A stretch of 64,000 nt of DNA from Candidatus Latescibacterota bacterium. GTDB taxonomy: Bacteria > Latescibacterota > UBA2968 > GCA-2709665. The translations under genes were made by a program, and so were the position numbers. The DNA is taken from positions 3,968,001 through 4,032,000 of the forward strand of contig OZ242358.1 of assembly GCA_965208835.1 (NCBI GenBank). Reading direction: 5' to 3'. Shown here in pieces: positions 39,965 to 64,000 of the stretch. The notes beneath the pieces were generated by a model. The model did not search any database and had not been told where the DNA came from. It saw only the letters and a list, made by a program, of their open reading frames with translations. Numbering within the stretch: the stretch's first letter is position 1; every line of letters begins with the position of its first letter.

Positions 39965-40186
39965 TCATTCTGATCCAGGATCCTCACCAGGTTCGTTTCG
40001 GCGCGGGGCGCAGACACGTTCCGCATCCGCCGCTTCCCACGCGGCCAGTTGTTCCGCGGTGGGCACATACAAGCCTGCTCTCCTGTAGTCGTCATCACTA
40101 AACGGCGTGCCGCCGGCATGCCAGGCGCGGCCGACGATCGGGTCAGTGAATCTTGAACCTCCCGGAGCGGGGTTTCGTTCGTCCAT
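39965..40186 (-). CDS. Repeat-flanked mini-protein (WHxDGTP family), 73 aa
   Basis: DPIVGRAWHAGGTPFSDDDYRRAGLYVPTAEQLAAWEAAD; ATG 4 nt after the repeat. Confidence 0.75.
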   Translation of the reverse strand: MDERNPAPGGSRFTDPIVGRAWHAGGTPFSDDDYRRAGLYVPTAEQLAAWEAADAERVCAPRRNEPGEDPGSE

Positions 40187-40193
40187 GATAGTT

Positions 40194-40418
40194 TCAATCC
40201 TTGTTCTGAAGGTGGACTTCGTCCGGTCCGACCCGCGGGCCTTCGTCAGTGTCGTGCTTGGCTTTCATATCGTCAATCAGTCGCTCGGTCTCGGCCCAAT
40301 GGGCAAGCTGTTCCGGGGTCGGAACGGGCAGGTTCGCCCGGCGATAGTCGGCATCGGAGAAGGGCGTGCCGTCCGGGTGCCAGCACTGAAAGCCGGCGGA
40401 GTCTTGTCTGTTTCGCAT
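40194..40418 (-). CDS. Repeat-flanked mini-protein (WHxDGTP family), 74 aa
   Basis: CWHPDGTPFSDADYRRANLPVPTPEQLAHWAETE; ATG 4 nt after the repeat; stop is the TGA of the next repeat's ATTGAAAC. Confidence 0.78.
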   Translation of the reverse strand: MRNRQDSAGFQCWHPDGTPFSDADYRRANLPVPTPEQLAHWAETERLIDDMKAKHDTDEGPRVGPDEVHLQNKD

Positions 40419-40477
40419 AGCTGTTTCAATCCCTATTCTGTTTGAAGGTCTCCGCCGTGCGAGCCGGCGACGAACGC

Positions 40478-40803: not shown

Positions 40804-40850
40804 TTGACAACGTATTCCGTTCGTTTATATTGTTATGTTATAACATAACA
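40804..40850 (+). promoter_or_regulatory. Sigma70 promoter with Zur box
   Basis: TTGACA (40804) and TATATT (40826) followed by the perfect 20-bp palindrome TGTTATGTTATAACATAACA (40831-40850), upstream of zinc-uptake genes and zur. Confidence 0.85.
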
Positions 40851-40987
40851 TCATTCAATCGTAGAGGACGACCCGCCTGTCATGAAACCAGCCGCAACCT
40901 GGCCTGTATCGACAGCCTCTACATCACGCCAGGCCGCGGGCGATCAGCCCGTTGAACTGCACCAGAACCTCGACTCCGGCGTAAACC

Positions 40988-41153: not shown

Positions 41154-41253
41154 AGCCCGTGGCAAAAGCCAGCCCAAATGCCGCCTCAACCGGCATCAAT
41201 GAAAGCGGCGGCGATGGCCTCGGCATTCGGTTTTCTGAAACGGTGACGATTTG

Positions 41254-42279: not shown

Positions 42280-42331
42280 GCGGTGGGCCCTGGCCTCGTT
42301 GTCCGCGCGAATTGTTATTAGGACTATCCGA

Positions 42332-42439
42332 ATGAATCCACAATTCTCTCCCCTTCGGGCCGGTATCGGAGCGCGCCTCGCGCTTGCCGGCGTCGCCGCC
42401 GGTCTGTTGTGGTTCGCGGTCGCATGGGCCCTGCTATGA
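42332..42439 (+). CDS. Small membrane protein (35 aa) preceding the ABC ATPase
   Basis: MNPQFSPLRAGIGARLALAGVAAGLLWFAVAWALL; stop overlaps the next ATG (ATGA). Confidence 0.5.
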   Translation: MNPQFSPLRAGIGARLALAGVAAGLLWFAVAWALL

Positions 42440-43185: not shown

Positions 43186-43291
43186 ACGCCAGGGCCACCT
43201 ACTGTCCTGTCCCAAAAACACCTCACCATTCGGCCGAATTCAGGCAACTTATTTCCGGGACTGAACACTACCCTCCTGTAAGGGGCGCGTG

Positions 43292-44158: not shown

Positions 44159-44185
44159 TTTTAATACCGAGCTACGAGTAAGCTT

Positions 44186-45199
44186 ATGACATCGAAGCGA
44201 TCTATCCTGTTTTCCGTCTTCGCCGCTTGTTTGATCGCCGTGTCAGGTTCGGGGACCGTCGGCGCCGATGCCCCCATTGACGTTGTCGCATCGTTCAGCA
44301 TCCTGGGTGATATGGTCCGGCAGGTAGGCGGTGAACGGGTGCGCGTCACTACCCTCGTCGGCCCCGACAGTGACGCGCACGTCTATCGGCCGACTCCGGC
44401 CGACGCGCGGGCCATCGCCGGGGCCAGGCTGTTGGTCGTCAATGGATTGGGCTTTGAGGGCTGGATAGACCGTCTCACGGAGGCATCCGACTACAGGGGG
44501 CCAGTGGTGACGGCGACAGCAGGCGTCGAACCCCGCAGGGTGGCGGATCCCGATCGCGGCGAAATCGATCCCCATGCCTGGCAGAGTCTGGCCAATGCCC
44601 GGATCTACGTCCGCAATATCGCCGACGGATTGGCTGCGATCGACCTGGCGGGGGCCGAAATCTATCGCGGCAACGTGGCGCGTTACATGAAGGAGATCGA
44701 CGAGGTCGAGGCACAGGTTCGCGAGGCGATCGGTTCGCTGCCGGTCGATCGGCGCAAGGTGGTCACATCCCATGACGCTTTCGGCTATCTGTCTGCAGCC
44801 TACGGCATCGAGTTCCATGCACCGGTCGGGTTCAGCACCGAAGCGGAGGCCTCCGCGGGTGACGTGGCCAGGCTGATTCGTCAGATCAACAGCGAGAAGA
44901 TTCCGGCGGTCTTCGTCGAGAACATCTCCGACCGCCGCCTGCTCGACCAGATCGTCCGGGAAACCGGAGCGAAGATCGGCGGCACGCTCTACTCAGACGC
45001 TCTGTCGAAGGCGGACGGGCCGGCCGGCACGCACCTTGACATGATGCTGCACAACATCCTGACGTTGTTCGCCGCCCTGTGCGACTCATCGGGTTCAGAG
45101 ACCAGGGGTGTACGTCTTGTCCGTGGAGCTGACGCAAGCCCTCGAACGCCGTGCGCAACCAGCTGCCACGAGAGTTGCGCGGCGAGGAGAAGCCCATGA
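44186..45199 (+). CDS. Zinc ABC transporter substrate-binding protein (AztC/ZnuA-like)
   Basis: VVASFSILGD, DAHVY.PTP, NGLGFEGW, DPHAWQ, SHDAFGY, LYSDALS. Confidence 0.9.
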   Translation: MTSKRSILFSVFAACLIAVSGSGTVGADAPIDVVASFSILGDMVRQVGGERVRVTTLVGPDSDAHVYRPTPADARAIAGARLLVVNGLGFEGWIDRLTEASDYRGPVVTATAGVEPRRVADPDRGEIDPHAWQSLANARIYVRNIADGLAAIDLAGAEIYRGNVARYMKEIDEVEAQVREAIGSLPVDRRKVVTSHDAFGYLSAAYGIEFHAPVGFSTEAEASAGDVARLIRQINSEKIPAVFVENISDRRLLDQIVRETGAKIGGTLYSDALSKADGPAGTHLDMMLHNILTLFAALCDSSGSETRGVRLVRGADASPRTPCATSCHESCAARRSP

Positions 45200-45657
45200 A
45201 TAGCAAAGCGCTTTCCCGGATCCTGGAACGAGCCGAGGCGTTGTGCCATGAGCGCGGCGCGCGGCTGACCGAACAACGCAAGGCCGTGCTTCAACTGCTG
45301 TGCGTATCGGACAAACCACTCAGTGCTTACGAGCTGTTGGAACGCATGCGCGGCGTTGTCAGAAATCCCGCGCCGCCCACGGTCTACAGGGCATTGGATT
45401 TCCTGCTTGGGCAGGGCCTGGCGCACAGGCTCGAGAGCCTGAACGCATACGTGGGCTGCGCACATCCGGATCATCCGCACGCCAGCCAGTTCCTGATCTG
45501 TGATGACTGTGGCGACGTGGCCGAGGTTGAAGACCCCATTGTGGTCAGGAGCCTGAAAGCGGCAGGCAAGGAGATAGGATTTCGTACCAGGCGGCCGGTC
45601 GTCGAACTGCTGGGAACCTGTGCGCAGTGCATTTCGGATAGAGACGGTCTTGCTTGA
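45196..45657 (+). CDS. zur: Fur-family zinc uptake regulator
   Basis: RLTEQR, SAYELL, PPTVYRALDFL, HRLESLNAYVGC, FLICDDCG, GTCAQC. Confidence 0.88.
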   Translation: MNSKALSRILERAEALCHERGARLTEQRKAVLQLLCVSDKPLSAYELLERMRGVVRNPAPPTVYRALDFLLGQGLAHRLESLNAYVGCAHPDHPHASQFLICDDCGDVAEVEDPIVVRSLKAAGKEIGFRTRRPVVELLGTCAQCISDRDGLA

Positions 45658-45805
45658 GACGAATCCTCATCAAACCCACGGACGCCGTTGACGCCGGGCT
45701 ACGTAAATAGCGAAGCGCTACAGCATCGATCGCGACCGGCGAGGCGCACTGCTGGAGCCGAGCCCGCCCGACTACATCATCACCCTTTTTGAGTGAGGGA
45801 ACTGA

Positions 45806-47026
45806 ATGCCCCTGTCAGAGAGACTTCCCGTTACTGTCCTTTCCGGCTTTCTCGGCGCAGGCAAGACCTCGCTTCTCAACAACGTGCTCCACAACCGCAA
45901 GGGCATGCGCGTCGCGGTCATCGTCAATGATATGAGCGAGGTCAACATCGACGCGACGCTCGTTGAGCGCGGCGGTGCGGAACTCTCGCGGACCGAGGAG
46001 ACGCTGGTCGAGATGTCGAACGGCTGCATCTGCTGCACGTTGCGAGACGACCTGCTTGCCGAAGTCTCACGGCTCGCACAGGAGAGACGCTTCGACTACC
46101 TGCTCATCGAGTCCACCGGGATTTCGGAGCCCATTCCGGTCGCGCAGACCTTCACCTTCGAGGACGAAAAAGGTGTGAGCCTGAGCCAGGTTTCGCGCCT
46201 CGATACCATGGTCACGGTCGTGGACGCGGCGAGCTTTCTGCGGGATTACAACGCCGCCGAAGCGCTCCAGGACCGCGGTGAGTCGCTGGGCGAAGAAGAT
46301 CAACGGACGGTGACCGACCTGCTTATCGACCAGATCGAGTTCGCCGACGTCATCGTGCTGAACAAGCTCGATCTCGTAGGCAACAATCAGGCTCTCGAGG
46401 TCGAGGCCATCGTGAAAGCGCTCAACCCCGGCGCGAAGATCCTCAAGGCGACGCGCGGACGGGTCCCGCTCGAATGCGTGCTCGACACGGGCCTGTTCGA
46501 CTACGATAAGGCGGAAAGCTCCGCCGGCTGGATTCGAGAGCTTCGGGGTGAGCACACGCCGGAGACCGAGGAGTACGGGATCTCGAGTTTCACCTATCGG
46601 ACGCCACAGCCCTTCGACGCCGAGAAGCTCTGGGCGTTCCTGCACGACGCCGAGAACTGGACCGGCGTGCTCCGTTCGAAGGGTTTCTTCTGGGTCGCCG
46701 CCGACCATCGGGTCGCCTACGAGTGGGCTCAAGCCGGCGGGGTCAGCGACGTGAACCCCTCGGGGATGTGGTGGGCAGCCGTGCCCTGCGAACACTGGGA
46801 ACACCCCGAAGATCAGCGACCCGACAAGCAGCCGGGCTGGCATTCCCGCTTCGGCGATCGCGCGCAGGAGCTCGTTTTCATCGGCCAGGAGATGAACGAG
46901 GCGGCGATACGCGCTCGCCTCGACGCGTGCCTGCTCGACGAACGCCTCGCCTCCGCCGACAGCAATGCCTGGGCAGAGCTCCGGAACCCGTTTCCGGAGC
47001 TTATCCTGGAAGAGGCTTCAGCCTGA
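45806..47026 (+). CDS. COG0523 zinc metallochaperone GTPase (ZigA/YciC-like)
   Basis: [52 protein letters not shown]. Confidence 0.92.
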
Positions 47027-47195
47027 CCGAGTATGCCTCACCCGTTTTTGCGAAAGGGTCACTCTACATCGATACCGGAGACGGGTTCATGCCGCGGGAT
47101 TGATTTCCGAATCTCCTCCGAGCAAGCATACCGGGGCGTGTGCCGCTATCCGGTCCCATCTTCGGTCTCGCCGTGTCACAGGGAGAAGAGGGTAT

Positions 47196-47498
47196 ATGTT
47201 GATCAACACCTCACGCCCGAACCGCGCACGGGTTCGCCGTATCAAAAACGCATTGCGCGAAGCGTTGAGCCTACCTGATGACACGGCGATTTCGGTCACC
47301 GAACTGGCGTGCCTCGAAGAAGGCTGCCCGCCTGTTGAGACCATGTTTGCTCTGCTTCAGCGCGATGCCCCACCGAATCAACACAAGCTTCACAAAGCCA
47401 CGGACGCCGTTGACGCCGAAGACCTGTTGCAGGTCTGCACGTCGTGGGGATTCGACGTCCAACTTCCATTGCTCAAACGTCTGCTCCAGGGGGACTAG
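47196..47498 (+). CDS. Small hypothetical protein with CxxxxCPPxET motif
   Basis: ELACLEEGCPPVET; RBS present; abuts the second COG0523 gene. Confidence 0.65.
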   Translation: MLINTSRPNRARVRRIKNALREALSLPDDTAISVTELACLEEGCPPVETMFALLQRDAPPNQHKLHKATDAVDAEDLLQVCTSWGFDVQLPLLKRLLQGD

Positions 47499-48938
47499 AT
47501 GAACAAGCCGAATTTGAAAATTCCACCTCGAAAAGTACCCGTTACGATCCTTACCGGCTTCCTCGGCTCCGGCAAGACAACCCTGCTCAACCGGATTTTG
47601 AGCGAGGAGCACGGCAAGCGCATTGCCGTAATCGAGAACGAGTACGGGGAGGTCGGCATCGATCAGGGGCTCGTCATCAACGCTGACGAGGAGATCTTCG
47701 AGATGTCGAACGGTTGCATCTGCTGCACGGTGCGCGGAGACCTGATTCGCGTACTCGGCAATCTCATGAAGCGCCGTGACAAGTTCGACTATGTGTTGGT
47801 GGAAACCACAGGGCTCGCAGACCCCGGTCCGGTCGCTCAGACCTTCTTCATGGACGAGGAGATTCACGGGGAGTTTTCGCTCGACGGGATCGTCACGCTC
47901 GTCGATGCGGCCCACGTCGAGCAGCAAATCGGCCGGAGCGACGAAAGCACGGAGCAAATCGCGTTCGCAGACGTCCTGGTTCTCAACAAGACGGACCTCG
48001 TGAACGGCGAGGCGCTCGACAGGCTCGAAGCCCGGCTGCGGGACATGAATCAAATGGCGCGAGTCGTGCGCAGCGAGCGGGCGAACGTGTCCCTCGATAC
48101 TGTACTCAACCTCGGCGCCTTCGACCTGGACCAGGCGCTCGAGCGTCGTCCCACCTTTCTCGAGCCGGAGTATCCGTTCGAATGGACTGGCGTCTATTCG
48201 CTCGATATCGGGCGCTACGAACTCAGCCTCGCCGATGGACCCGATCCGGCGATGTCCCTCGTCGTCGCGCCCGACCAGGGCACGAATGACGCCGCCCTCC
48301 GCGAGGGTGCGGAGTGGTGTGTACGGCGATTCGGCGAACCCGCGGAGCTCATTTGCCCGGGGGACGAGATTCCAGTCGGAAGGCACGTGAACCTCCGGCT
48401 CGACTCTCCAGGGCATAAGTCGTTCTTCTTGACAGTCAATACGCGGGCGAGGGTAGGCCTCTACGCTCAACACATCGCGGAGGAGTTCGATCTCAAACTG
48501 AAAAACGCGGATGGGGCGACAGTCAGCCTGGAGGACAGTCCACGCTCCGGGATCACCTCCAAAGAGAACGGCGCCCCGCGTGTTAAAGGAGCGGTGGTTC
48601 CAGTTGAGGTCGAGCGGACATGGGTCGCACAGCACGAGCACGACGACGAGGTCGGCTCGTTCGCGATCGAGAGGAGCGGCGACGTCGATCCTGAAAGTCT
48701 CAACGCCTGGCTAGGCAAACTGCTCCGTGAGCGCGGGGTGGACATCTTCCGAATGAAGGGCTTCATCAGCGTGGCAGGTGAGTCGCATCGCTTCGTCTTC
48801 CAGGGGGTTCACATGCTCTTTGACGGCCAGCGGGATCGCGAATGGGGGGACGCGCCCCGCCGCAATCAGCTCGTGTTCATCGGCCGCAACCTCGATGAGC
48901 AGAGCATTCGGAAGGAATTCGAAGCATGTCTAGTTTAA
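47499..48938 (+). CDS. Second COG0523/CobW-family GTPase with an inserted domain
   Basis: LTGFLGSGKTT, ENEYGE, NGCICCTVRGDL, ETTGLADP, FRMKG, FQGVH, LVFIGRNL. Confidence 0.92.
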   Translation: MNKPNLKIPPRKVPVTILTGFLGSGKTTLLNRILSEEHGKRIAVIENEYGEVGIDQGLVINADEEIFEMSNGCICCTVRGDLIRVLGNLMKRRDKFDYVLVETTGLADPGPVAQTFFMDEEIHGEFSLDGIVTLVDAAHVEQQIGRSDESTEQIAFADVLVLNKTDLVNGEALDRLEARLRDMNQMARVVRSERANVSLDTVLNLGAFDLDQALERRPTFLEPEYPFEWTGVYSLDIGRYELSLADGPDPAMSLVVAPDQGTNDAALREGAEWCVRRFGEPAELICPGDEIPVGRHVNLRLDSPGHKSFFLTVNTRARVGLYAQHIAEEFDLKLKNADGATVSLEDSPRSGITSKENGAPRVKGAVVPVEVERTWVAQHEHDDEVGSFAIERSGDVDPESLNAWLGKLLRERGVDIFRMKGFISVAGESHRFVFQGVHMLFDGQRDREWGDAPRRNQLVFIGRNLDEQSIRKEFEACLV

Positions 48939-52625: not shown

Positions 52626-53149
52626 TCAGCAGTCTGGCGTACCTGACCCGCGCCACGGCGTCAAACGTGGCCACCAGCGGCGCACGTTCAGGCAGTAGGT
52701 CTCGTTCGACCCCCGAATCTTTCTCGGAGTTTCGGCTCTTCATAAAGCAGCACGGTCAGGTGGAACGCGGCGAGCATCACCCCGGCGTACGCCGCAAGCC
52801 GGGCCCGGCCAAACAGTAGCGCCTGCCCTGAAATGATGATCAGCACGGAGATGTACATCGGGTTTCGCACGAACCGATAGAGGCCGGAAGCGACCAGCAT
52901 TTCGGTTTACGCCACCGGCGCCGGTGTGCCGCGCCCCTCGAGGACGAAACGGGCGAAGCAGTCCAGCAGGCAGGCCAGACCCGTCGCAACCGCCGCAACC
53001 CCCATTAATCGCTCGCCGGGCAACCCGAGCAGCAGTGGCTGTATCGTCCAGCCGACCAGTGCGAACGGGACGACACCGGCAACGACAGCCGGAGCGACCC
53101 AGAAGAAGACGAACGACCCGACGATCGCACGCGTACGTGTGCGCTTCAC
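52626..53149 (-). pseudogene. Isoprenylcysteine carboxylmethyltransferase/PEMT family gene, frameshifted
   Basis: GRGTPAP | LVASGLYRFVRNPMY...YEEPKLRERFG | YCLNVRRWWPR split over three segments with an in-frame stop. Confidence 0.75.
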
Positions 53150-53187
53150 GTTTCAATCCTTGTACTGATGGGAGTGACCAGAGATCG
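53150..53187 (-). repeat. Solitary CRISPR-like repeat unit
   Basis: GTTTCAATCCTTGTACTGATGGGAGTGACC on +, same family as the 40191, 60109 and 60337 repeats. Confidence 0.7.
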
Positions 53188-53292: not shown

Positions 53293-56200
53293 TCAATATT
53301 CCGGTGGTGAGAGATCGATCGCCCATTCTTTGAACTTCGAGACGTTGACGTCGGATCGGTCGAGGAGTGTAAGGAGTTCCTCCTGGCGGGGTTGCCCAAA
53401 GACAACCCGGTAGGCTGCGAGTTGACGTTTGAGGCGTACGAACGCTTCGACCTCCGTCGTGTATGGCAATAGTGGTACATGGCGCTGCACGAAGCAGTCT
53501 CCGGGGGCGATCCAGTGAGGTACCAGGTCGCTTTTCCCGGCGGCTCGCGCAGCCTGGTCGGCCAGCGCGAACATCTGTCTCCAGATATCTTCACCCGCCC
53601 TCCATGACGTCAAGGCGTCGTGCGCGTGGCGAGCAGCGACGTTTCGCCGGACCGCATGGCCCTTATAACGGTGAATCCGGCCTTCGCGTTGCTCAAGATC
53701 GACCGGATTGCCCGGAAGGTTCCAGTGGACCAGGGAGTGACACCACGGATGGAAGTCGAGCCCCTCCTGTCCAATCGACGTACTGGCAAGCACAAACGGC
53801 CGAAACGGGCTATTGAAAGCGTCCCTCACGACGTCCTGGCTGATGTGATCACCTTCGTCCGTTCGGATGTGGCCGAAGCGTAGCGCGAACGCCGTGCGAA
53901 GGCGGGTTACTTCGAGTTCAGGCTTTGTTCCACTTCCTCCCGCACCTTCTGTCTCAAAGAACCTCGCATGGACGCGAGAACGCATTGGACGTACAACCTG
54001 GATGAGTTTGCGGGCGCATCTGCCGGCGATCTCGTCACCGCTGGCGTCGCCGGACCACGACTCCTGGTCCCACAGCAGGTGCCACTGCTCGTCAAGTACT
54101 GCCTGCAGGTTCCCGTGGCGGCAGTAGCGAAGTACCAGTCGCCAGTAGGCCGAACCATCGCGCTCTTCCGCTCCTCTGTCGGCAAGCTGGCGCAGCAGCG
54201 CCGTCACGGCAGGCTGATTGAAGAGACGCCAGAACGCGACTGCAATCATGGCCGCGAACCGGCGACGTGAATCATCGCCAATTCCCGTCCCGTTTCTCAG
54301 GCTGCGTGCCGCGAGAATCGCCGGCGAACCAATGGCGACCTCGGTGAGCAATCTCGCAAGATTTGCCGGACGCCGGCCGAGTTTTCGCGGATCGACCCTG
54401 AGCAGATCGTCGATGTACGCACCGAAGCCTTCCGGATTTGGACGACCCGTGTCATCCGATAATCCAGGAAGTTCGCCATCCGCCCACGTGCCAAGAAAAC
54501 TGCGCAGATCCGGATCCATCAACAGCGGCGCCATCCACTCCCACCTGTCATCAATATCTCCTTCTTGCGGGTTAGGAAGCTTCGGATCGGCAAGAAGTTC
54601 GTCGACCCGGTCTCGCACCCACGCCCGGCGATCCTGTCCAGACCGAAAGTCCAACGGATGCGCCCGGTCCGCCAGCGGAAGGCACGGTATGAGCAGCAGC
54701 AGGAGACGATGGCGGGAAAGGCCGCCCAATTTCGACTTTGCGAGCCTTAAAAGTGGTCTCTGCTGCTCGGCAAGTTTCTCATATGACCCATTCCGGCCAC
54801 GCGTCATCAGTCGTTCAGCTTCGTAGCTTAGTACGGCGCTGACAACGTCGGGCACCACGTTCCAAGCCGAAAACAACAGGCGCTTCGTTGCTTTTTCCTT
54901 GCCCTTGAAGGGTCCTTCAAGCGGCCAGTACGGAAGCGTCGGCGGCATCCAAAGAAGGCGCCATATCCCCTTGTCGATCAACTCCCCGACCAATTCACGC
55001 AGCTTGGCACTTCCGGGGTCGATGCTTTCCCACCTACGTATCGTCGCTGGCGTCAAGAACGCCGACTTATGTTGCTGAAGAACCTCGACGATCTTTCCCG
55101 GCGTGTTAATTGCCTCGTCGAGTAGTTCGTTGAACCTGTAACCTCGCATGAAGTGAGCCAAATACGGAGCTGATTTCCAAAACGGCATCGGATCGCGGTC
55201 ACCGACGGCCCGAAACAACGCGTCGGCGGCCAGGTACTGGCGCACGTCGGTTGAGGTCACGGTCGCGTTACTCGGGACCTCTGCCACCATCGCGTCATTG
55301 TCTTCACTGGCTGCGACGCGCTCGGATCGCGCCATCACGTTCCTGAGCGTTCCTTCGACCTCGCGTTTCGCTTGTTCGACTCGCCCCGGCCCATCCGGTT
55401 CTCCCGCTGCCGCGCGCTTTAATGCTGACCCGAAACGCGAGAACTGGCTCTTAATCTCTTCGACAACCGCGTCATCGTCGCCATACAAGAACCTTGTTGT
55501 GGCCAGGAAGTCCTCGTAGTGGTCCTCGTGTTCGATCTCCGCATCTGCGGTGTAGAGTTTGTACGGCGTCGCGGAGAGCAAGAGCGTCCGCACACGCTTA
55601 CCGTCGTGCGCTTTGGCCTGGAACAACTCATGAGCCAGGTGCGCCGCGGGGTCTCGCTCGCCGTCACTTGTGTCGAGCAGCGACTTAAAGCGCTGGAACT
55701 CGTCCAGGATTACGAGGTCGGGCTCCAGGGCCTTGACGCACACTTTGGCGAGTACCCGGCGCAAATCCGATATAAGCCGGTCTCGCCGGTACCGCAGATC
55801 GTCCGGCCAGTAATTCCGGTAGTAGCCGAACGCACTCAGGATTTCTCTAAATCTGTACTCCAGACCGTGGCACTCATGAAACGCATTCTCAAACCTTCGC
55901 CGTATTGAGTCTTCGATAGGTCGGGGGCGGTTGTTGAGGAACCATCGCCAGTCATCCCGGTTCGTAATCCATCCCTGCAGGAAATTCATAAGCGCCGTGC
56001 GCCGTTCGGTCAGGGGATCGAGCAGTTGAAACAGCACCTCCCGTTCCGGGCGCTGGCCGGCGGATTGCCCCATGTTGAAGGATGTTCCCGGCGTGAAACT
56101 GACGAAGTTCAGCTTGCTGTCGACGAGACCTGGTTCGCCTTCCTTACGCGCCAGTTGCGTGGCCAACATCGTGAGACGTGTCGCCAATGCGAACGACCGT

Positions 56201-56487
56201 TCTTCGGCGCCTCCGATCCTCAGCTTTGGGAGATTGGCTCGTGCGATGCCGGCATTGCTGCAAATGTAGATGATGTCGATCCGTTTGACGTCGTCCCAGA
56301 GGTGATCGATGGCGCGCGCAATGATACCGCGGGCGACCAGCGTCTTCCCAAGGCCCACCTCGTCGGCCACCAGGAAGCGTCCTGTACTGTCTTCCGCAGT
56401 GAACAAGCGGTGGAAGGCATGTTCTACTGTCCGCCGTTGGAAGGATTTGAGTGGTTTAAGACCCGCGTCTACCGATGGACGCTTCAT
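53293..56487 (-). CDS. SF2 helicase of a putative Azaca-like defence operon
   Basis: RFLVADEVGLGKT, ILDEFQRF, LLSATPYK, AFNSPFRPFVLASTSIGQEGLDFH, DLEQREGRIHRY. Confidence 0.85.
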   Translation of the reverse strand: MKRPSVDAGLKPLKSFQRRTVEHAFHRLFTAEDSTGRFLVADEVGLGKTLVARGIIARAIDHLWDDVKRIDIIYICSNAGIARANLPKLRIGGAEERSFALATRLTMLATQLARKEGEPGLVDSKLNFVSFTPGTSFNMGQSAGQRPEREVLFQLLDPLTERRTALMNFLQGWITNRDDWRWFLNNRPRPIEDSIRRRFENAFHECHGLEYRFREILSAFGYYRNYWPDDLRYRRDRLISDLRRVLAKVCVKALEPDLVILDEFQRFKSLLDTSDGERDPAAHLAHELFQAKAHDGKRVRTLLLSATPYKLYTADAEIEHEDHYEDFLATTRFLYGDDDAVVEEIKSQFSRFGSALKRAAAGEPDGPGRVEQAKREVEGTLRNVMARSERVAASEDNDAMVAEVPSNATVTSTDVRQYLAADALFRAVGDRDPMPFWKSAPYLAHFMRGYRFNELLDEAINTPGKIVEVLQQHKSAFLTPATIRRWESIDPGSAKLRELVGELIDKGIWRLLWMPPTLPYWPLEGPFKGKEKATKRLLFSAWNVVPDVVSAVLSYEAERLMTRGRNGSYEKLAEQQRPLLRLAKSKLGGLSRHRLLLLLIPCLPLADRAHPLDFRSGQDRRAWVRDRVDELLADPKLPNPQEGDIDDRWEWMAPLLMDPDLRSFLGTWADGELPGLSDDTGRPNPEGFGAYIDDLLRVDPRKLGRRPANLARLLTEVAIGSPAILAARSLRNGTGIGDDSRRRFAAMIAVAFWRLFNQPAVTALLRQLADRGAEERDGSAYWRLVLRYCRHGNLQAVLDEQWHLLWDQESWSGDASGDEIAGRCARKLIQVVRPMRSRVHARFFETEGAGGSGTKPELEVTRLRTAFALRFGHIRTDEGDHISQDVVRDAFNSPFRPFVLASTSIGQEGLDFHPWCHSLVHWNLPGNPVDLEQREGRIHRYKGHAVRRNVAARHAHDALTSWRAGEDIWRQMFALADQAARAAGKSDLVPHWIAPGDCFVQRHVPLLPYTTEVEAFVRLKRQLAAYRVVFGQPRQEELLTLLDRSDVNVSKFKEWAIDLSPPEY

Positions 56488-58319
56488 GATCGTGGCTCCG
56501 GTGCGATTGCCTCCTCGACTGCCGTCCAAATACTGAATAGTTCGTCTGGCACGATCAGGCGCCCTTCTTCAGTCTTCCGAAGTTCGTCGATCAGGCGACG
56601 TACCGGCTTCAGGCGATCGGGGTCTCGGGACGCGGTACGGACGAGATCATCCAGCAAGGTCTCACCGCTCTGCCCTATTCCCCAGTTAGAGGAAGGTTCT
56701 CCTTCTCCGCTATCTTGCGCCCAGCCGAGTACAGTGTCGAGTCCGCCCAGCAACGCCCTCAGGAAACGAAGGAACTTCTCAGGGGTGTCCAGCAATCCCT
56801 TGAGTACGTGATGCATGCGATCTTCAGGCATACCGTGAGCCGGAAGTCGCAGGGTCATGCGGACGTCGTCCACGCCCTGGACGTTGACACTCAGCCGAAA
56901 GGCGATGAATGCCGTCAGACGCACAATGGGCAGATTCCAACTGATCGTTTTCTCCAGGCGCAGTGCTTGATCTTCGGCTACGGAGACGGGCCAGGCTTCG
57001 ACCTGGACATCGTCGGCCATTTGAAATTCGGGCCCGGTGATAGCCAGCGTCCATGAGTCGCCTGAGGAACCGCATCTCACTTGCAGGTTAGAATTCAAGA
57101 GGTCGTCCCCCAAGGCTTCAAGGCGTTTTCGGGCAGCGGCGATGGCTGGGTCTTCTATCTCCGGATCGACTCTCTTATACTTCATGCACAGCTTCCGAAA
57201 TCCGGCGTCAAGGAACCTATCGATGCCCTGACCGCTGTGGCCCCCTTTGCGTCCCTTCTTTCCCGTGATGGATGCAACCATTTCGACGTTTCTGCCATTG
57301 AACGCCGACGCTGTCAGGTTGGCGGAACCGACGTACCACGTAACGTCCCAACGGTGCTCCACGGCGATCATCTTGGCGTGCAGCCCCGACGGGCGATCAA
57401 TCCCGCCAGTCATCGGTTCGTTCTGCTCAGCCAGACTTTCCTCGGGCTCCCCATGCGCGGTATCCCTAAGGACGAATACATCGTTCCATTCCGCCAGTGC
57501 ATCTTCAGCGAGTCTGTCGAGTTCCTCCTGCCTGCTCACGAGCATTCGGTCGTTACCGCTCAACTCCCTGACGACCCCCAGTCCGGTCCGACTGATGAAC
57601 GGCGCCACCGCAAGTGTTCGATATCCATTCGACGGCGGTCGCCAGTGACGGCGACGCCTGGACAATCCGATTGAATGGAATTCGACAGGAGATGCGAAGC
57701 CGTCCGGGGCGGGAAACCTGATTCGTGAAACCTGATCGGCAAGTGCATCAATGCGATCGGCGACATCCGTGAGAACCGGGTTTACGGCCAGACGAGGTAG
57801 CGCTTCGAGGAATTCACGGAGTGGTCGGCTGACGGCCGCACGCCTCCTGCCCCGAAGCCGCGCCTCGCTCGCGAGCGCAACGTCCCACGAACGGTCAAAT
57901 GTCAGATTGCGCGACAGGATTGCAACGCGCAAAACGTCTTCGGCATCCTCCCCCGAGGCAACAAACCGAGCCGCCCACACCTTCGGGTGGAATGCGCCAC
58001 CGTTTGGGGCGCGTACGGCATGCACACTCGGCTCGAGCATTGAGTACAGAGGTCTCACGTTGCGTGGAATTGCAATGCCCGTTTCATCAACAAACACGTG
58101 GATACGGTCGCCAGCGTCACGGATCGCCTGGTGCAGCCTCAGTGGATCTTGAAGCAACTCATTCAACCCTTCGTCCGTATGCGCGAGCACCGATAACGGA
58201 AGCAGCAGCATCGTTTCCAGATCCAGGGTATAGGTCGTCAGTACAGCAAAGTCGAGGTCGTATCCGCTCGGCGGGCGGAGCAACTCGAAGGCTGTGGTAC
58301 GCGATTCGGGCGATAACAT
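56484..58319 (-). CDS. Phospholipase D-superfamily (HKD-like) nuclease of the putative defence operon
   Basis: LRPPSGY.LD.AV.TTYTLDL, FHPKVW...SRNLTFDRSWD, LHAKM...GSANLT; overlapping start/stop codons on both sides. Confidence 0.8.
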   Translation of the reverse strand: MLSPESRTTAFELLRPPSGYDLDFAVLTTYTLDLETMLLLPLSVLAHTDEGLNELLQDPLRLHQAIRDAGDRIHVFVDETGIAIPRNVRPLYSMLEPSVHAVRAPNGGAFHPKVWAARFVASGEDAEDVLRVAILSRNLTFDRSWDVALASEARLRGRRRAAVSRPLREFLEALPRLAVNPVLTDVADRIDALADQVSRIRFPAPDGFASPVEFHSIGLSRRRRHWRPPSNGYRTLAVAPFISRTGLGVVRELSGNDRMLVSRQEELDRLAEDALAEWNDVFVLRDTAHGEPEESLAEQNEPMTGGIDRPSGLHAKMIAVEHRWDVTWYVGSANLTASAFNGRNVEMVASITGKKGRKGGHSGQGIDRFLDAGFRKLCMKYKRVDPEIEDPAIAAARKRLEALGDDLLNSNLQVRCGSSGDSWTLAITGPEFQMADDVQVEAWPVSVAEDQALRLEKTISWNLPIVRLTAFIAFRLSVNVQGVDDVRMTLRLPAHGMPEDRMHHVLKGLLDTPEKFLRFLRALLGGLDTVLGWAQDSGEGEPSSNWGIGQSGETLLDDLVRTASRDPDRLKPVRRLIDELRKTEEGRLIVPDELFSIWTAVEEAIAPEPRS

Positions 58320-59530
58320 CAGGCGGCCAACCCCCTGTGAAGGTCGGTGAGAAACTGCCGGACGCGAACCCAGCGAAAGTCCATCCGACCAACGCCGACC
58401 CATGGTTTCCACTCCATCAGGCGACTCCGGTTTCCAAGTCGTGCGCGTGCTCCCTTCAGGTGTGACTCGCGTTCGGTAACCAACTCTCTTAACTGTTGGT
58501 CGTTGGCGATCCTGCCGGCATTCAACTTGGTAATGTGTCGAGACCAATCTTGAATGAAGAGTCGTTGGTGATGTGGAGCAAGCCCGCCGCGTCGAGCTAC
58601 CAATTCCCAGAGCGGATCCGGATCGAATGGTTGAGCTTCTTCCGCCTCACGCCCCGCCCATTCAGTGAGCTCTGCACGGAACGAACTGATTAATTCGCCA
58701 TCATCGTCAGTGTCAAGCATCTCGCGACGGTGTTCGGCCACAACCAGATTGTAGAGCAGTGGCATGCCCTCGACGTGTAGAGAGAACCGCCGGGCTAGTT
58801 CCACGGTATCACGAATACTCTGAGGTGCGCGGAGGGCGTCCGGATCGTCCCAGAAGTCGTCCCCGGGCGAATCGGATCCATTGCGGGCCAGCCACGCCAG
58901 CAGGGCACCGGCGCAACGTTCCTCCAGGCGGCCGAGAAGGAAGTCGGCCTCGTCACGGTTCAACGCGAAGGATGCCTCCCACGGAAAGCCAGCCGGCGGC
59001 GACGGCATACGCGGATGCCAGTGCGCATCACGGCTCCAGATAACGCCTGGATCGTCCGCCCGCCCCACACTGCCGCGGCCATCCGCAAGCGCGTCAAAGT
59101 GCGAGTGGTACCAACTCAGGCTCTGCTGCGGCCTAAAGATGCCCCATCGAGTCAGCGCGCTCCAGTATATCGAACTTGGTAACCGGACGAGTGAGTGGCG
59201 GGCGTATACGCCGATGATGCCCTTCTTGTCTTCGCCCTGTTCCAATCGTCCGATAAGATCGACTTCCGCCTGACGCGCGGCTCGCTCCACGTCTACACTC
59301 CTTACCCGACGCGTCTCCAACCTCCGGTAGATCCATGGAATGAGGAGTACATAACGCAGCCGCGTCTGGATATAAGACGTGCCGGGAAAAAGTGCGTCAG
59401 AGATCGCGTCCCGTAGGTTTCCGAGCCCCATCTCGTCGAGCGTGCCCTGCTCGTTGAACAGGTCCAGCACCCGCCGCATCTTGTCGCGGTCGCCCGCCGT
59501 CAGGTCGAGCCAGGTCAACGTCGCCTGCAT
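58319..59530 (-). CDS. DUF6361-like protein, first gene of the putative defence operon
   Basis: LTWLD...GTLDEMGLG.LRDAISD.LFPGTS.IQTRLRY.L.IPW, PSSIYWSAL..WGI, E..LKG.RARL, FRW. Confidence 0.75.
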   Translation of the reverse strand: MQATLTWLDLTAGDRDKMRRVLDLFNEQGTLDEMGLGNLRDAISDALFPGTSYIQTRLRYVLLIPWIYRRLETRRVRSVDVERAARQAEVDLIGRLEQGEDKKGIIGVYARHSLVRLPSSIYWSALTRWGIFRPQQSLSWYHSHFDALADGRGSVGRADDPGVIWSRDAHWHPRMPSPPAGFPWEASFALNRDEADFLLGRLEERCAGALLAWLARNGSDSPGDDFWDDPDALRAPQSIRDTVELARRFSLHVEGMPLLYNLVVAEHRREMLDTDDDGELISSFRAELTEWAGREAEEAQPFDPDPLWELVARRGGLAPHHQRLFIQDWSRHITKLNAGRIANDQQLRELVTERESHLKGARARLGNRSRLMEWKPWVGVGRMDFRWVRVRQFLTDLHRGLAA

Positions 59531-59557
59531 TGCGTGAGTCCTTGTACTGATGGATTC

Positions 59558-59749
59558 CTACCGGGAACCGCCGGACTGACGACGTCGACGCGCACATTCA
59601 GCATCGGCCTTTGCCCACAGAGTGAGCTGGGAGAGCGTAGGCACAGGCAGGCCGGCGTTGCGGTAGTCCTGGTCACGGTAAGGTGTCCCGTCCGCATGCC
59701 AGCACCGGCCTGGGCCACCTGTCTGTTTGTCGACGACTCGCTTGGTCAT
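59558..59749 (-). CDS. Repeat-flanked mini-protein (WHxDGTP family), 63 aa
   Basis: GGPGRCWHADGTPYRDQDYRNAGLPVPTLSQLTLWAKADA; ATG 4 nt after the repeat. Confidence 0.78.
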   Translation of the reverse strand: MTKRVVDKQTGGPGRCWHADGTPYRDQDYRNAGLPVPTLSQLTLWAKADAECARRRRQSGGSR

Positions 59750-59756
59750 ATTGGTT

Positions 59757-59960
59757 TCAATCCCCGTTCTGATGAAAGATCCCCAACGGGTTTTGTCTTT
59801 CCGCTTCAGCCCAGGCTAATAGCTGTTCATCCGTTGGGGGAGTCAATCCCGCCTTGATGTAGTCGGCTTTGTTGAAGGGCGTTCCGTCTTCATGCCAAGC
59901 CTGACCAACAATCGGATCGGCCATTTTTCTGCCTTTGGTGATGTTGGGATCTCTTGGCAT
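59757..59960 (-). CDS. Repeat-flanked mini-protein (WHxDGTP family), 67 aa
   Basis: DPIVGQAWHEDGTPFNKADYIKAGLTPPTDEQLLAWAEAE; own AAGGAAGG RBS; stop inside the repeat. Confidence 0.78.
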   Translation of the reverse strand: MPRDPNITKGRKMADPIVGQAWHEDGTPFNKADYIKAGLTPPTDEQLLAWAEAERQNPLGIFHQNGD

Positions 59961-60111
59961 GTCAAACCTTCCTTGATTCGGCGTTTATGATTATGGGAGC
60001 GTCTAATTTTGATTCTTTGGCGTCTTGCCAACCGTCAAGGCAGGCTTTCATGGATGCACGGGAAAAGGTTGGGCCGTTTCTGTAATTTGTGCGCTTGTCG
60101 CTGTAGGGATT

Positions 60112-60332
60112 TCAATCCTTGTTCTGATGGAAGATCCCCAACGAGTCGACCTGCTGGCGCTGGTCGTCTTGGGCCCACTCGAGCAGCTGCTTGGCCGTGG
60201 GACAACCTGTCCGGCACGGCGATACTCTTCCAGTGTGCAGGGTGTACCGTCCTCACGCCACATACGAGAGATGCCGCCTGACTGTCTGTTTGGGCCTTTG
60301 ATGAGGCGGAATCTTCTTGGTCGCTTGGGCAT
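60112..60332 (-). pseudogene. Repeat-flanked mini-protein (WHxDGTP family) with a 1-nt frameshift
   Basis: MPKRP...MWREDGTPCTLEEYRRAGQVVP / TAKQLLEWAQDDQRQQVDSLGIFHQNKD*; shift near 60198-60202. Confidence 0.7.
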
Positions 60333-60394
60333 GCTGGTTTCAATCCTTGTTGTGACGGAAGATACTCGCAGGGCACCGGCCACTGTTTTTGTTT

Positions 60395-60610
60395 TCAATC
60401 CGCTCCCCTGCGCGGGGAGCGACTGGAGTTGCCCGAGGACTGACGCCGCCGCGCTCGCCGAGCATCGGCGCGAGCCCAGAGCATGAGCTGGAAGAGCGTA
60501 GGTACAGGCAGGCCGGCCTTGCGGTAGTCCTGGTCACTGTAAGGTGTTCCGTCGGCATGCCAGCAGCGGCCTGGGCCGCCTGTGTGTCTGTCAAGGATTC
60601 GCTTGGGCAT
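60395..60610 (-). CDS. Repeat-flanked mini-protein (WHxDGTP family), 71 aa
   Basis: MPKRILDRHTGGPGRCWHADGTPYSDQDYRKAGLPVPTLFQLMLWARADA; ATG 5 nt after the terminal I-C repeat; stop inside the I-C-like repeat. Confidence 0.78.
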   Translation of the reverse strand: MPKRILDRHTGGPGRCWHADGTPYSDQDYRKAGLPVPTLFQLMLWARADARRARRRQSSGNSSRSPRRGAD

Positions 60611-60615
60611 GCGGT

Positions 60616-62360
60616 GTATCACTCCGCGCCCCCGCGTGGGGGGCGACCCAAGACCCGAGACGTGGGCGGTATGGCTTTCGTGTTTCAATCCACGCCCCCG
60701 CGTGGGGGGCGACGTCCGGCTGCTGCCGGCGTCAGGATAACGCGGTCGTTTCAATCCACGCCCCCGCGTGGGGGGCGACGTATATGTTGGAAAACCTTTG
60801 GTTCTTTGTCTGTTTCAATCCACGCCCCCGCGTGGGGGGCGACAGACCGGCCCGACTTCGATGTGCGGGATAGGGTTGTTTCAATCCACGCCCCCGCGTG
60901 GGGGGCGACTGTGACTACTGCCATACGCTATCCGAATCGACCGGTTTCAATCCACGCCCCCGCGTGGGGGGCGACAGATTCACTCTCAAGCGGGGGAGTC
61001 CAATCAAATTGTTTCAATCCACGCCCCCGCGTGGGGGGCGACCGCCATCAGAGGCGGCACACGCACCTCCATCTTGTTTCAATCCACGCCCCCGCGTGGG
61101 GGGCGACGTGTCAATCGTTCCGCCGAAAAACAAATCCGGGTGTGTTTCAATCCACGCCCCCGCGTGGGGGGCGACCTGGGCCGTATCCGTGACGACCCGC
61201 AGCCGGTTCTGTTTCAATCCACGCCCCCGCGTGGGGGGCGACTGACCATACGGCAGTTTTTCGCCGCCGTTGCCATGTTTCAATCCACGCCCCCGCGTGG
61301 GGGGCGACCCCGCCTGGGTTCCGCCAAACAGACGCCTGACAAGTTTCAATCCACGCCCCCGCGTGGGGGGCGACCCTGATACGATCAAACCACATTCACC
61401 TATTAAGGTTTCAATCCACGCCCCCGCGTGGGGGGCGACTCAGGATCTCGGCGTCATCATCCAGAGATCGGAGTTTCAATCCACGCCCCCGCGTGGGGGG
61501 CGACCAGCATATCGAAGACGCCATCAACCAGGCACTGGAGGTTTCAATCCACGCCCCCGCGTGGGGGGCGACAGCCGGAGAAGTTTGTGCGCCGCATCTT
61601 CGGATGTTTCAATCCACGCCCCCGCGTGGGGGGCGACACACGAAATATCCGGGCCATCCCTACGAGTTTATGTTTCAATCCACGCCCCCGCGTGGGGGGC
61701 GACGAGGTATCGGAGGCCAAAGTCCTTGATGCCAAGGTTTCAATCCACGCCCCCGCGTGGGGGGCGACCGGAGGCTACCGCGGCGGCGGAGGACATCCTA
61801 TTTGTTTCAATCCACGCCCCCGCGTGGGGGGCGACTCACGGGCAAGAGAACGGGCGGCGGGCCGGGCAAGAGTTTCAATCCACGCCCCCGCGTGGGGGGC
61901 GACCTTGTACGTCGCCTCGAGCAGCTGGCGGGCCGTGTTTCAATCCACGCCCCCGCGTGGGGGGCGACTGGCCTCCCGGCTCTCTTTCGCTATGCTGATT
62001 AGTTTCAATCCACGCCCCCGCGTGGGGGGCGACCCAGCCGGCGGGCCAGGGTCTGGACGTGGGTCTGTTTCAATCCACGCCCCCGCGTGGGGGGCGACAC
62101 CCTCGTCAGACAGTACCCGGGCAGAGTATGAGTTTCAATCCACGCCCCCGCGTGGGGGGCGACCAAACACATGGATCAAACTCTGTAGTAAATATAGTTT
62201 CAATCCACGCCCCCGCGTGGGGGGCGACATCGGAATGAAATCCGAATGCCGGATGCTGGAGGTGTTTCAATCCACGCCCCCGCGTGGGGGGCGACGATTG
62301 TGGGCAAAGACAACCAGATGGACGGTTTGTTTCAATCCACGCCCCCGCGTGGGGGGCGAC
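60616..62360 (-). CRISPR. Type I-C CRISPR array, 27 repeats and 26 spacers (about 32-36 nt)
   Basis: 32-nt repeat GTCGCCCCCCACGCGGGGGCGTGGATTGAAAC (minus strand) at ~66-nt period; degenerate terminal copy at 60616-60647. Confidence 0.97.
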
Positions 62361-62546: not shown

Positions 62547-62837
62547 TCACACAATCAATGTTCCGTTCAAGTCGGTCGCCGGCTTGGCACCAATGTGCTC
62601 TACACGTCGCTTCCAATTAGCACCAAGGAAATAATATCTGAGACTGTCGGTTTCTAAATTGATGATCGCCTCAAGCTGGGCACTTAAAGCGGCCCATTGC
62701 GCGGGCTCCACCTCAATCTCGAACACAGAAAACTGCACTCTTTGTCCAAAATCGCGACATATCTTAGCGACACGACGTAAACGACGTGCGCCGCCATCGG
62801 ATGTCGTCGAGACGTCGTACGTAACGAGAACCATCAT
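62547..62837 (-). CDS. cas2: CRISPR-associated endonuclease Cas2
   Basis: MMVLVTYDVST...GARRLRRVAKIC..FGQRVQFSVFE...DSLRYY.LG. Confidence 0.96.
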   Translation of the reverse strand: MMVLVTYDVSTTSDGGARRLRRVAKICRDFGQRVQFSVFEIEVEPAQWAALSAQLEAIINLETDSLRYYFLGANWKRRVEHIGAKPATDLNGTLIV

Positions 62838-62899: not shown

Positions 62900-63934
62900 T
62901 CATTTCCATAACCACGGCGGGTGGGCATCTAAGTCGCCTCGAAGATGCCGAGCCAGCAATTGTGCTTGGAGATATGGAACTAAACCGAGCGGTGCCTGCT
63001 CCCCAAGAAAGGGATGGCGACGCTCTACACGCTTTCGCTCCTGCCATGCACTGAGAACCGTTTTGCGAGCGGCATCGCTCATTGAGACGCTGCCGCCTTC
63101 TCGAACTTGGAAGTCCTTAGCGCGTATTTGCCGACGATTGACTAGCGATAGCACAAGCCGATCAGCCAAGACGGGTCGCAGCTCTTCCATAAGGTCTAGC
63201 GCAAGACTCGGACGGCCGGGACGATCTCTATGAAAGAAGCCCACTGCCGGATCCAAGCCAACGCTCTCGGCGGCAGAGTTGCAGTCGTGAACGAGAAGCG
63301 TATATAGAAATGAAAGCAGGGCATTCACAGGGTCACGTGGTGGCCGACGGTTGCGACCTGCAAATGCCATCTCTGGTTCGGGTACGCGGATCAGGAGACC
63401 AAAGAACGAAAAATAGAGCCGTGCGGCCTCGCCTTCAAAACCTCGTAGTCTATCAACACTGTCGTGGCCGTCGCTAATGCGTTGCACAATCTGCCGCAGG
63501 CGATTTGTGGCGACGGACATAGCTTCTCGGCTAGAAAGCTCAAGTTGGTCTCCATAGTCGCGCTGCGCTCTTTGCAAGACGGCTCTCTGATTAGCGATCT
63601 TGCCGACGAGAATGCTGCGGACGATTTCTTCCGGTGTGTCGCTGACTCTATATTGTGCGCGACGCAGCAGTACATTGCCAGAAACTGGACCCTCGACTCG
63701 GGCTTGGAATCGGCCGAATCGACTTAGGAGTACTAAGACGATGCCACCGGCAGCGCAGGCTTGGATCAGAGGTGGAGATATATAGATGCTGCCGAACACC
63801 ACCACCGACCCCAGCATGTGGAACGGAACCCTCACACGTTCCTCGCCCTCTACTTCCGCGACCAGATTCTCGCCGTCCTTGGTCAGACGTGCTTCAGGCG
63901 TAGTAACGTATAGCGTATTGAGCAACCGCCTCAT
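62900..63934 (-). CDS. cas1: CRISPR-associated endonuclease Cas1 (type I-C)
   Basis: MRRLLNTLYVTT, GPVSGNVLLRRAQY, LRGFEGEAA, RNRRPPRDPVNALLSF.Y, GRPSLALDLMEE.R, LARHLRGDLD. Confidence 0.96.
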   Translation of the reverse strand: MRRLLNTLYVTTPEARLTKDGENLVAEVEGEERVRVPFHMLGSVVVFGSIYISPPLIQACAAGGIVLVLLSRFGRFQARVEGPVSGNVLLRRAQYRVSDTPEEIVRSILVGKIANQRAVLQRAQRDYGDQLELSSREAMSVATNRLRQIVQRISDGHDSVDRLRGFEGEAARLYFSFFGLLIRVPEPEMAFAGRNRRPPRDPVNALLSFLYTLLVHDCNSAAESVGLDPAVGFFHRDRPGRPSLALDLMEELRPVLADRLVLSLVNRRQIRAKDFQVREGGSVSMSDAARKTVLSAWQERKRVERRHPFLGEQAPLGLVPYLQAQLLARHLRGDLDAHPPWLWK

Positions 63935-64000
63935 GGGTGTTCTCCAGACTCGGCAAGGTGCGACGATAGAGTGCGGGTTCGCCAAGCGAGAACCGAATGT
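63931..64000 (-). CDS. 3' end of the upstream gene, probably cas4 (partial)
   Basis: Open frame ending in an ATGA overlap with cas1; identity inferred only from the usual I-C gene order. Confidence 0.4.
   Translation of the reverse strand, partial: HSVLAWRTRTLSSHLAESGEHP

Follow-up and report, generated by a model that had tools for sequence, protein, structure and literature searches.

CRISPR repeats bound small-protein genes and a defence operon behind a type I-C array in a Latescibacterota genome

Results

Genes in spacer positions

We analysed a 64,000-nucleotide (nt) stretch of a Candidatus Latescibacterota genome (contig OZ242358.1 of assembly GCA_965208835.1; genome size 5.18 Mb), hereafter the window, in which the trailer of a CRISPR array contains protein-coding genes. 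Directly behind the array lie four genes of a small-protein family (~65 amino acids, aa), three intact and one frameshifted, every one of them flanked by CRISPR repeats. The same bounding is seen for a defence operon, zacABC (the Azaca system), and for a broken methyltransferase-like gene. Two kinds of repeat are mixed in this trailer: two copies are of type I-C character, and the remainder belong to a 37-nt, I-B-like kind (…CATCAGAACAAGGATTGAAAC). The best explanation is that the trailer is a row of gene cassettes and not a set of decayed spacers. All relevant features lie on the minus strand, and their coordinates are written from high to low.

The array itself is part of a type I-C CRISPR–Cas locus. 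Repeat finding delimits 27 repeats of GTCGCCCCCCACGCGGGGGCGTGGATTGAAAC with a period of 64–68 nt (62360..60616), preceded by a leader, cas2 (62837..62547, from the call of open reading frames, ORFs) and cas1 (63985..62900; PADLOC Cas1c, E 1.3e-150). A WYL regulator, cas3, cas5c, cas8c, cas7c and cas4 were found by PADLOC just past the window end, in the extended locus (L065). With the remainder of the cas operon directly outside the window, the locus is complete, and the combination of a regular array and a full cas gene set makes it type I-C. Folding predicts a GC hairpin and a single-stranded tail of 11–12 nt for the I-C repeat. The final array repeat (60647..60616) has a degenerate 3′ tail.

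The first trailer gene, ORF1 (60610..60395; 71 aa), has its ATG 5 nt past this final repeat. Its C-terminus, ...RGAD, is followed by a stop that is the TGA of a variant I-C-type repeat, GTCGCTCCCCGCGCAGGGGAGCGGATTGAAAAC (60423..60391), which forms a strong hairpin (−18.6 kcal/mol, z −3.96). An alternative frame over ORF1 (60594..60340) also ends in a repeat TGA (...FRHNKD) and is no family member. An interval of 17 nt (60390..60374) separates the variant repeat from the first 37-nt copy (copy 1, 60373..60337; …CGTCACAACAAGGATTGAAAC; nhmmer E 1.7e-6), which also matches Rfam CRISPR-DR7 weakly (E 0.011, under the gathering score). Four nt past copy 1, at 60332, is the ATG of ORF2 (60332..60112), the frameshifted family member. 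It gives two partial family matches, the N-terminal part in one frame and the C-terminal part, …PTAKQLLEWAQDDQRQQVDSLGIFHQNKD (...GIFHQNKD), in another. The latter frame stops at a TGA (60114..60112) within copy 2 (60145..60109; nhmmer E 3.8e-9).

Beyond copy 2 lies a 29-aa ORF (60051..59962) without relatives, whose coding status is doubtful. Its end lies in a very degenerate repeat-like stretch (…CAAGGAAGGTTTGAC) that nhmmer does not detect and that touches the ATG of ORF3 (59960..59757; 67 aa). ORF3, a family member, ends ...GIFHQNGD in the TGA of copy 3 (CCCGTTGGGGATCTTTCATCAGAACGGGGATTGAAAC; 59790..59754, located by nhmmer), and the ATG of the next family member, ORF4 (59749..59558; 63 aa), follows 4 nt past that copy. 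ORF4 has its own TAG stop, inside the degenerate copy 4 (…CATCAGTACAAGGACTCACGC; 59562..59532). Copy 4 is weak by itself in nhmmer (E 0.26); the same degenerate copy stands 5′ of zacA in the closest relative's locus (L064).

Copy 4 abuts the ATG of zacA at 59530. The operon comprises zacA (59530..58319; PADLOC ZacA, 2.6e-121), zacB (58547..56484; PADLOC ZacB, 7.7e-162) and zacC (56529..53293; PADLOC ZacC, E 0), adjacent, in this order and matched over their full lengths. Copies 4 and 5 bracket the whole operon (59530..53293), within which a DUF6361 match also falls. Copy 5 (…CCATCAGTACAAGGATTGAAAC; 53175..53150; nhmmer E 3.3e-4) is followed immediately by a GTG start at 53149. This start belongs to a membrane-protein gene (53149..52688) broken into two frames of 80 aa and 70 aa; by a reading of motifs, as opposed to a family search, its product looks like an isoprenylcysteine or phospholipid methyltransferase.

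A second locus, 20 kb from the trailer, repeats the pattern. There, a repeat tail (40457..40423) precedes a 74-aa family gene (40418..40194) that ends ...LQNKD with its stop in the TGA of another repeat tail (40219..40191); this tail lies between two family genes, with the second, of 73 aa (40186..39965), directly behind it.

We compiled 109 variants of the 37-nt repeat into a profile; with it, nhmmer detected seven sites at E < 1 in the 5.18-Mb genome, all of them in the window and on the minus strand. At six of these seven sites a start codon follows 0–5 nt after the repeat. Since every profile site falls in the window and nearly all stand directly before start codons, the arrangement of repeats and genes is not attributable to chance.

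An earlier note on this DNA had described four units that end in the TGA of the next repeat. This description is accurate for ORF1, the shifted ORF2 tail and ORF3; the fourth unit, ...LQNKD, is found not in the trailer but at the second locus. The note had further placed five of six ATGs 4–5 nt past a repeat, which strictly is true of three (ORF1, ORF2 and ORF4). For ORF3 and zacA, the ATG comes 0–1 nt past copies that are very degenerate; the start of the 29-aa ORF is 58 nt from the repeat before it. We did recover the Shine–Dalgarno (SD)-like motifs that the note had pointed out: in ORF1, ORF2 and ORF4 the start codon has GGAG, AAGGA or GGGGA 11 nt ahead of it.

A lineage-specific small-protein family

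Alignment of ORF1, ORF3, ORF4 and both second-locus genes gives a common core, WHxDGTP[FY]xxxDYRxAGLxVPTxxQLxxWA. HMMER, run exhaustively over 1.84 billion representatives, returned 25 matches at E <= 1e-3; five were set aside as long repetitive proteins, and the others measure 44–157 aa. A word-based search for relatives returned the protein itself and one other. The small proteins have no Pfam or PADLOC family match (the ORF2 query being one base out of frame for Pfam), and ESM Atlas gave no usable match. The AlphaFold model is mediocre (predicted local distance difference test, pLDDT, 69), and Foldseek found nothing in the PDB at E <= 0.001. No viral contig matched a back-translated family pattern, and tblastn found no match in a phage collection. 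The family pattern was likewise without match in Joint Genome Institute (JGI) metagenomes. A narrower alignment found three loci there, with only one (L098) a good relative, and one independent metagenome contig carries the same gene–repeat layout.

Family members occur in 12 of the 14 genomes of the window's genus and in one of two genomes of the sister genus, with none elsewhere among 168 genomes of the phylum. We had considered a spread across phyla, given three loci labelled Gemmatimonadota or Tectimicrobiota (L064, L024 and L060), and rejected it because the kinship search confines the family to the genus and its sister. The Tectimicrobiota-labelled locus L060 is nearly identical, repeat contexts included, to part of the Latescibacterota-labelled L035, and the Gemmatimonadota-labelled L064 and L024 behave as members of the window's genus. 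The public phylum labels of these metagenome-assembled genomes look inconsistent, and we treated the loci as close kin.

Identity of the junction repeat

Scanning 185,579 species genomes with the tail of the 37-nt repeat yielded 48 loci. Several of them hold long regular arrays with a period of 72–76 nt and 52, 54 and 69 pattern matches per 8-kb locus. In a relative, such an array lies directly behind cas6b-cas8b-cas7b-cas5b-cas3-cas1b-cas4 (arrays L036 and L040; operon L066). Over 26 of 26 nt (60135..60110), copy 2 is identical to the L036 array repeat by blastn. The 37-nt junction repeat is a genuine type I-B CRISPR repeat, as its regular arrays in relatives demonstrate. In the window's genome its copies do not form a working I-B array: their spacing is irregular, from 17 nt to ~6.3 kb, and we found no cognate cas genes. 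Among kin, where the small genes also follow this repeat, their place is often the trailer end of a true I-B array (L035 and L036) or the stretch that separates an I-C from an I-B-type array (L049).

The two kinds of repeat have in common their last 10 nt, GGATTGAAAC. They differ in structure. I-B-type repeats are poorly structured, folding no better than shuffled sequences (z −0.5 and +1.4), and on this count the I-B-type junctions do not look like the attC sites of integrons. The hairpin expected of a substrate for the resident Cas5c is present only in the two I-C-like repeats around ORF1.

As a separate observation, a degenerate repeat (…ATCAAAACAAGAGTTGAAAT) lies 5′ of cas6b in the relative's operon (L066:9030-8930, minus strand), where it adjoins an ATG and an ORF of 8 codons. 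Some 50 nt further on comes another repeat-like stretch, and the pair resembles the mini-arrays reported near I-B cas6.

Distribution of cas genes

In the window's genome, tblastn found no cas6b, cas8b, cas7b or cas5b, and no PADLOC Cas6 profile matched. Pfam PF01881 was also negative there; we give this result no weight because PF01881 also misses a Cas6b that PADLOC detects in another genome (G001). Across the 14 genomes of the genus, Cas6b-like genes occur in three, Cas5c-like genes in four and Cas1 in nine, the last two being found in the window's genome as well. Three genomes have the family and its repeat tails with no match to Cas1 or Cas6: G057 and G059, which are single contigs, and G050, which consists of 100 contigs. 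On this showing, keeping the family does not hinge on Cas genes.

A kin genome, G002/G062 (L049/L035, contig C5; L067), carries at least 80 identical I-B-type repeats immediately behind a variant I-C operon plus a short array of I-C repeats, and two queries found no cas6 in it. This large array is either orphaned or serviced by the I-C system. Given its position beside an I-C operon, with no cas6 found, I-C machinery may conceivably deal with I-B-type repeats.

Conservation of the gene–repeat junction

We counted junctions over 30 distinct family copies, defining the repeat tail as the 3′ 21 nt with at most 5 mismatches. The tail ends 2–5 nt before the ATG in 22 copies, and an I-C repeat precedes two more. 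The stop codon falls in the repeat TGA in 4 of the 30 copies, while in 7 of the 30 the gene's own stop abuts the next 37-nt repeat. With so few copies using the repeat TGA, a repeat-supplied stop is a minority back-stop and not the rule.

Sequence conservation is strongest in the repeat tail. The repeat 3′ 21 nt have a mean pairwise identity of 0.83 (21 copies, 210 pairs), above the 0.72 of core codon positions 1 and 2 and the 0.46 of position 3. The difference between codon positions is a protein-coding substitution pattern. AAGGA is kept in 18 of the 21 copies, counted by eye. Homologues translate the repeat in all three frames (…FHQNKD followed by a stop, …LPSEQGLK… and …SSIRTRNET…), so it is conserved as DNA or RNA and not as peptide. 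Between Cas6b-positive and Cas6b-negative genomes, the cassette repeats showed no clear difference, in a comparison of small numbers (~5 versus 17 copies).

The window's genome has a canonical 16S 3′ end, and SD sites are in use. In its 3641 ORFs of 250 aa or more, AGGA is most frequent 6–9 nt before the ATG (104–145 ORFs, against a background of 13.5). At 11–12 nt, 31–33 ORFs have the motif against the same background, so some signal remains. These counts place the repeat AAGGA where SD function is weak yet present, and they bear out the earlier note's remark that the spacing from SD to ATG is long: 11–12 nt is in the weak tail of the genome's own distribution.

Mosaic relationships among kin loci

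Against the closest locus, L064, the window aligns in two blocks, 59788..58008 at 82.7% identity and 60408..60110 at 79.6%, both of which begin or end at repeats; copy 3 marks the left synteny breakpoint. Between the blocks lies the ORF3 cassette. Its L064 counterpart is only a weak, family-level one (~69% over 185 nt), and other cassettes occur there instead. Within the trailer, the DNA of ORF1 and ORF4 is 83% identical over 169 nt from the ATG. Despite this likeness, ORF1 is flanked by I-C-type repeats and ORF4 by I-B-type repeats.

Repeat-bounded intervals in kin contain DUF4432, EEP-family nucleases, NucS-like, Nmad3, ParA-like ATPase, UDG-like, methyltransferase, UvrD helicase and ADP-ribosylglycohydrolase genes, a content that, going by these family assignments, reads like that of a defence island. 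We found no transposase or insertion sequence (IS) features inside the cassettes. A search of sequencing runs listed none of RNA that contains the stretch. Contigs of four sequencing runs gave assembly pieces and repeat-driven joints only; one depth-2 contig that joins the zacA start to a better-preserved repeat was too weak and was not used.

Neighbouring features

A metal-uptake cluster (41251-48938) stands beside the second locus, with a NicO-like gene, genes for a znuA/B/C-type ATP-binding cassette (ABC) transporter and two genes for CobW-type GTPases. Before the cluster comes an AT-rich palindrome (…TGTTATGTTATAACATAACA…; 40830-40870) resembling a Zur-type operator. Outside the window, at about 47600-48100 of G000:C1, short imperfect tandem units (…CAGGATTAAGCAGGATTGAAACCAG…) turned up among GGATTGAAA sites; they are unrelated to CRISPR repeats.

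Discussion

With about even confidence, we read the trailer as repeat-bounded gene cassettes that are shuffled by repeat recombination and that use the repeat tail as a 5′ untranslated or ribosome-binding region. In the ancestry of the genus, a type I-B array would have come to contain a lineage-specific small-protein gene in place of a spacer. Recombination from repeat to repeat would then have produced tandem paralogues, and the same recombination may have exchanged cassettes among loci and across array types; the tail is common to I-B and I-C repeats. The process may also have placed other defence-type genes, here zacABC, between repeats. At present, the conserved 3′ 21 nt of the repeat would be the 5′ untranslated region of each cassette, in transcripts that would arrive from the array side. 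From the tail would come a ribosome-binding site, AAGGA, that is weak and distant, along with a spacer rich in A and free of structure; in one of the three reading frames the repeat TGA would also act as a reserve stop codon.

Several points weigh against this account. The identity of the tails could stem from gene conversion with arrays and not from translational selection. The repeat 5′ 16 nt are also fairly conserved (0.64), which an SD role leaves unexplained, and a gap of 11–12 nt between AAGGA and ATG is poor for a genome that peaks at 6–9 nt. About 5 of the 30 family copies have no upstream repeat, and the family is confined to one genus and one sister-genus genome. On the coding strand from the last array repeat to zacC, a consensus scan turned up nothing promoter-like, and promoter and terminator counts were no higher than in shuffled sequence. 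That cas genes go unseen in draft genomes does not prove their absence. Recombination, too, is deduced from mosaic structure in kin, and kin are not independent samples.

The strongest competitor, which we nevertheless consider unlikely, holds that the trailer is an eroded I-B array with inserted genes, whose functionless repeats are alike through recent descent or gene conversion. The trailer ends of arrays are known to decay, and degenerate copies occur here too, at 59562..59532 and in the stretch before ORF3; no cognate nuclease was found in the window's genome. Long 'spacers' of other species are mostly transposon insertions (Kupczok et al. 2015, PMC4524480). The cassettes, on the other hand, are free of transposase and IS features. 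If the repeats were passive relics, an ATG fixed at 2–5 nt behind them in 22 of 30 copies would also be unexpected, as would a gene's own stop abutting the next repeat in 7 of 30. Nor would relics account for tails that exceed the non-synonymous positions of the core in conservation, among paralogues whose cores are ~60% identical.

The earlier note had instead proposed that Cas RNA processing gates translation. Cutting would remove the upstream stop and the downstream SD, so that the peptides are made only upon failed processing, as an addiction module or as a sensor of cas loss or anti-CRISPR activity. A canonical Cas6b-type cut falls 8 nt from the repeat 3′ end, between …AAGG and AUUGAAAC, and Cas5d/Cas5c cuts 11 nt from the repeat end. 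The geometry agrees with both cuts, and the note was right that a Cas6b-type cut would fall between AAGGA and ATG and upstream of the TGA. ORF1, moreover, lies between two hairpin-bearing I-C-type repeats that are possible substrates of the resident Cas5c; the last 10 nt are common to both kinds of repeat; and G002/G062 has its long I-B-type array beside an I-C operon with no cas6 found.

Several observations run counter to such gating. The genome yielded no cas6 or other I-B gene, the I-B-type repeats lack a hairpin, only 4 of 30 copies stop in the repeat TGA, and the second locus is 20 kb from any array. Pfam, PADLOC and fold searches gave no sign of toxicity. Intact family genes with their tails are kept in the three genomes where Cas1 and Cas6 gave no match, and this persistence argues against addiction, since a toxin freed by cas loss would not be expected to persist. 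We therefore find the addiction or sensor reading unsupported in this genome and gating improbable. The chance we still allow it comes mainly from the I-C-type flanks of ORF1 and the unexplained array of G002/G062. Equally doubtful, in our estimate, is a cassette platform at array trailers, in which genes in spacer positions, ranging from that of a 65-aa protein up to the entire Azaca system, would be cotranscribed with the array and exchanged through repeats. Where a cell has the matching nuclease, cutting would strip the SD, and in a minority the TGA too, leaving back-up cassettes to be translated only when CRISPR RNA (crRNA) processing is blocked or lost.

Very improbable, finally, is that the repeat and the first ~35 nt behind it are processed to a guide for Cascade repression, as in CreA/CreR mini-arrays: I-B loci often contain standalone repeats and mini-arrays, notably near cas6 (Shmakov et al. 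2023, preprint), and a relative has the degenerate repeat-like pair 5′ of cas6b (L066), yet here the sequence after the repeat is a conserved coding gene with a codon-position pattern and not a 30–40-nt pseudo-spacer, the 'spacers' range from 17 to ~6300 nt, and no cognate effector for I-B-type handles was found in the window's genome.

Repeat-bounded cassettes, the account we favour, have partial counterparts in known systems. Like integron cassettes, the genes here form a row in one orientation, with a conserved junction element and a content that is mosaic between relatives. Integron cassettes are compact, mostly promoter-less genes in one orientation, joined at attC junctions by the integrase IntI. 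Here, by contrast, the junction is a CRISPR repeat and not an imperfect palindromic attC, and IntI was not seen at the locus, where no dedicated search for it was made. The mechanism would be homologous recombination, or perhaps Cas1–Cas2, rather than IntI. CRISPR repeats between cistrons also recall engineered insulators: Qi et al. reportedly used Cas6/Csy4 sites in 2012 to cut operon transcripts into separate messages. That laboratory design leaves SD and stop codons intact, whereas a canonical cut here would remove both, and no Cas6 was found in the genome. RNA anti-CRISPRs, or viral solitary repeat units, sit in phages or plasmids. They resemble the present arrangement in setting a lone CRISPR repeat beside small orphan genes. 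This locus differs in being chromosomal and directly behind its own array, and the family has no viral or phage match.

CreTA, said to have been described by Li et al. in 2021, offers another comparison. As with CreTA, CreR and cargo-gene regulators, the repeats here stand outside a regular array, within or beside cas loci and near defence genes. CreTA and CreR consist of two pseudo-repeats around a short pseudo-spacer of ~30–40 nt, which directs Cascade to a promoter to which it is partly complementary; here the repeat abuts a start codon and the 'spacer' is a gene. The intervals are protein genes of at least 190 nt and so not those of a CreTA/CreR mini-array, and the cassettes persist where no cognate cas genes were found.

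Shmakov et al. (2023, preprint) surveyed standalone repeats and mini-arrays and describe repeat-like sequences outside arrays and near cargo or defence genes, with type I-B prominent. Tn7-like transposons target CRISPR repeats, according to a 2025 report in Mob DNA. The long 'spacers' and mobile insertions of Kupczok et al. 2015 (PMC4524480) are likewise non-spacer DNA of at least 100 nt between repeats, with repeat recombination keeping the boundaries exact. The cassettes differ from such mobile-element insertions: they lack transposase genes and inverted ends, one small non-mobile family recurs with a constant spacing between repeat and ATG, and repeats likewise bracket an entire defence operon. 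Our full-text literature search found no paper on protein genes held in spacer positions, its coverage excluding the supplementary tables of Shmakov et al. 2023, which are a possible source.

The familiar role of CRISPR repeats is as sites where crRNA is processed; away from arrays they are known from small RNAs with regulatory or decoy functions. In this trailer they edge protein-coding cassettes, and their conservation exceeds that of the flanked proteins. If our account is true, arrays would seed defence islands through cassette duplication and exchange by repeat homology, even between types I-B and I-C, and the locus would be a natural case of CRISPR repeats reused as translation leaders. 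It is also a concrete natural substrate for testing the control of neighbouring genes by crRNA nucleases.

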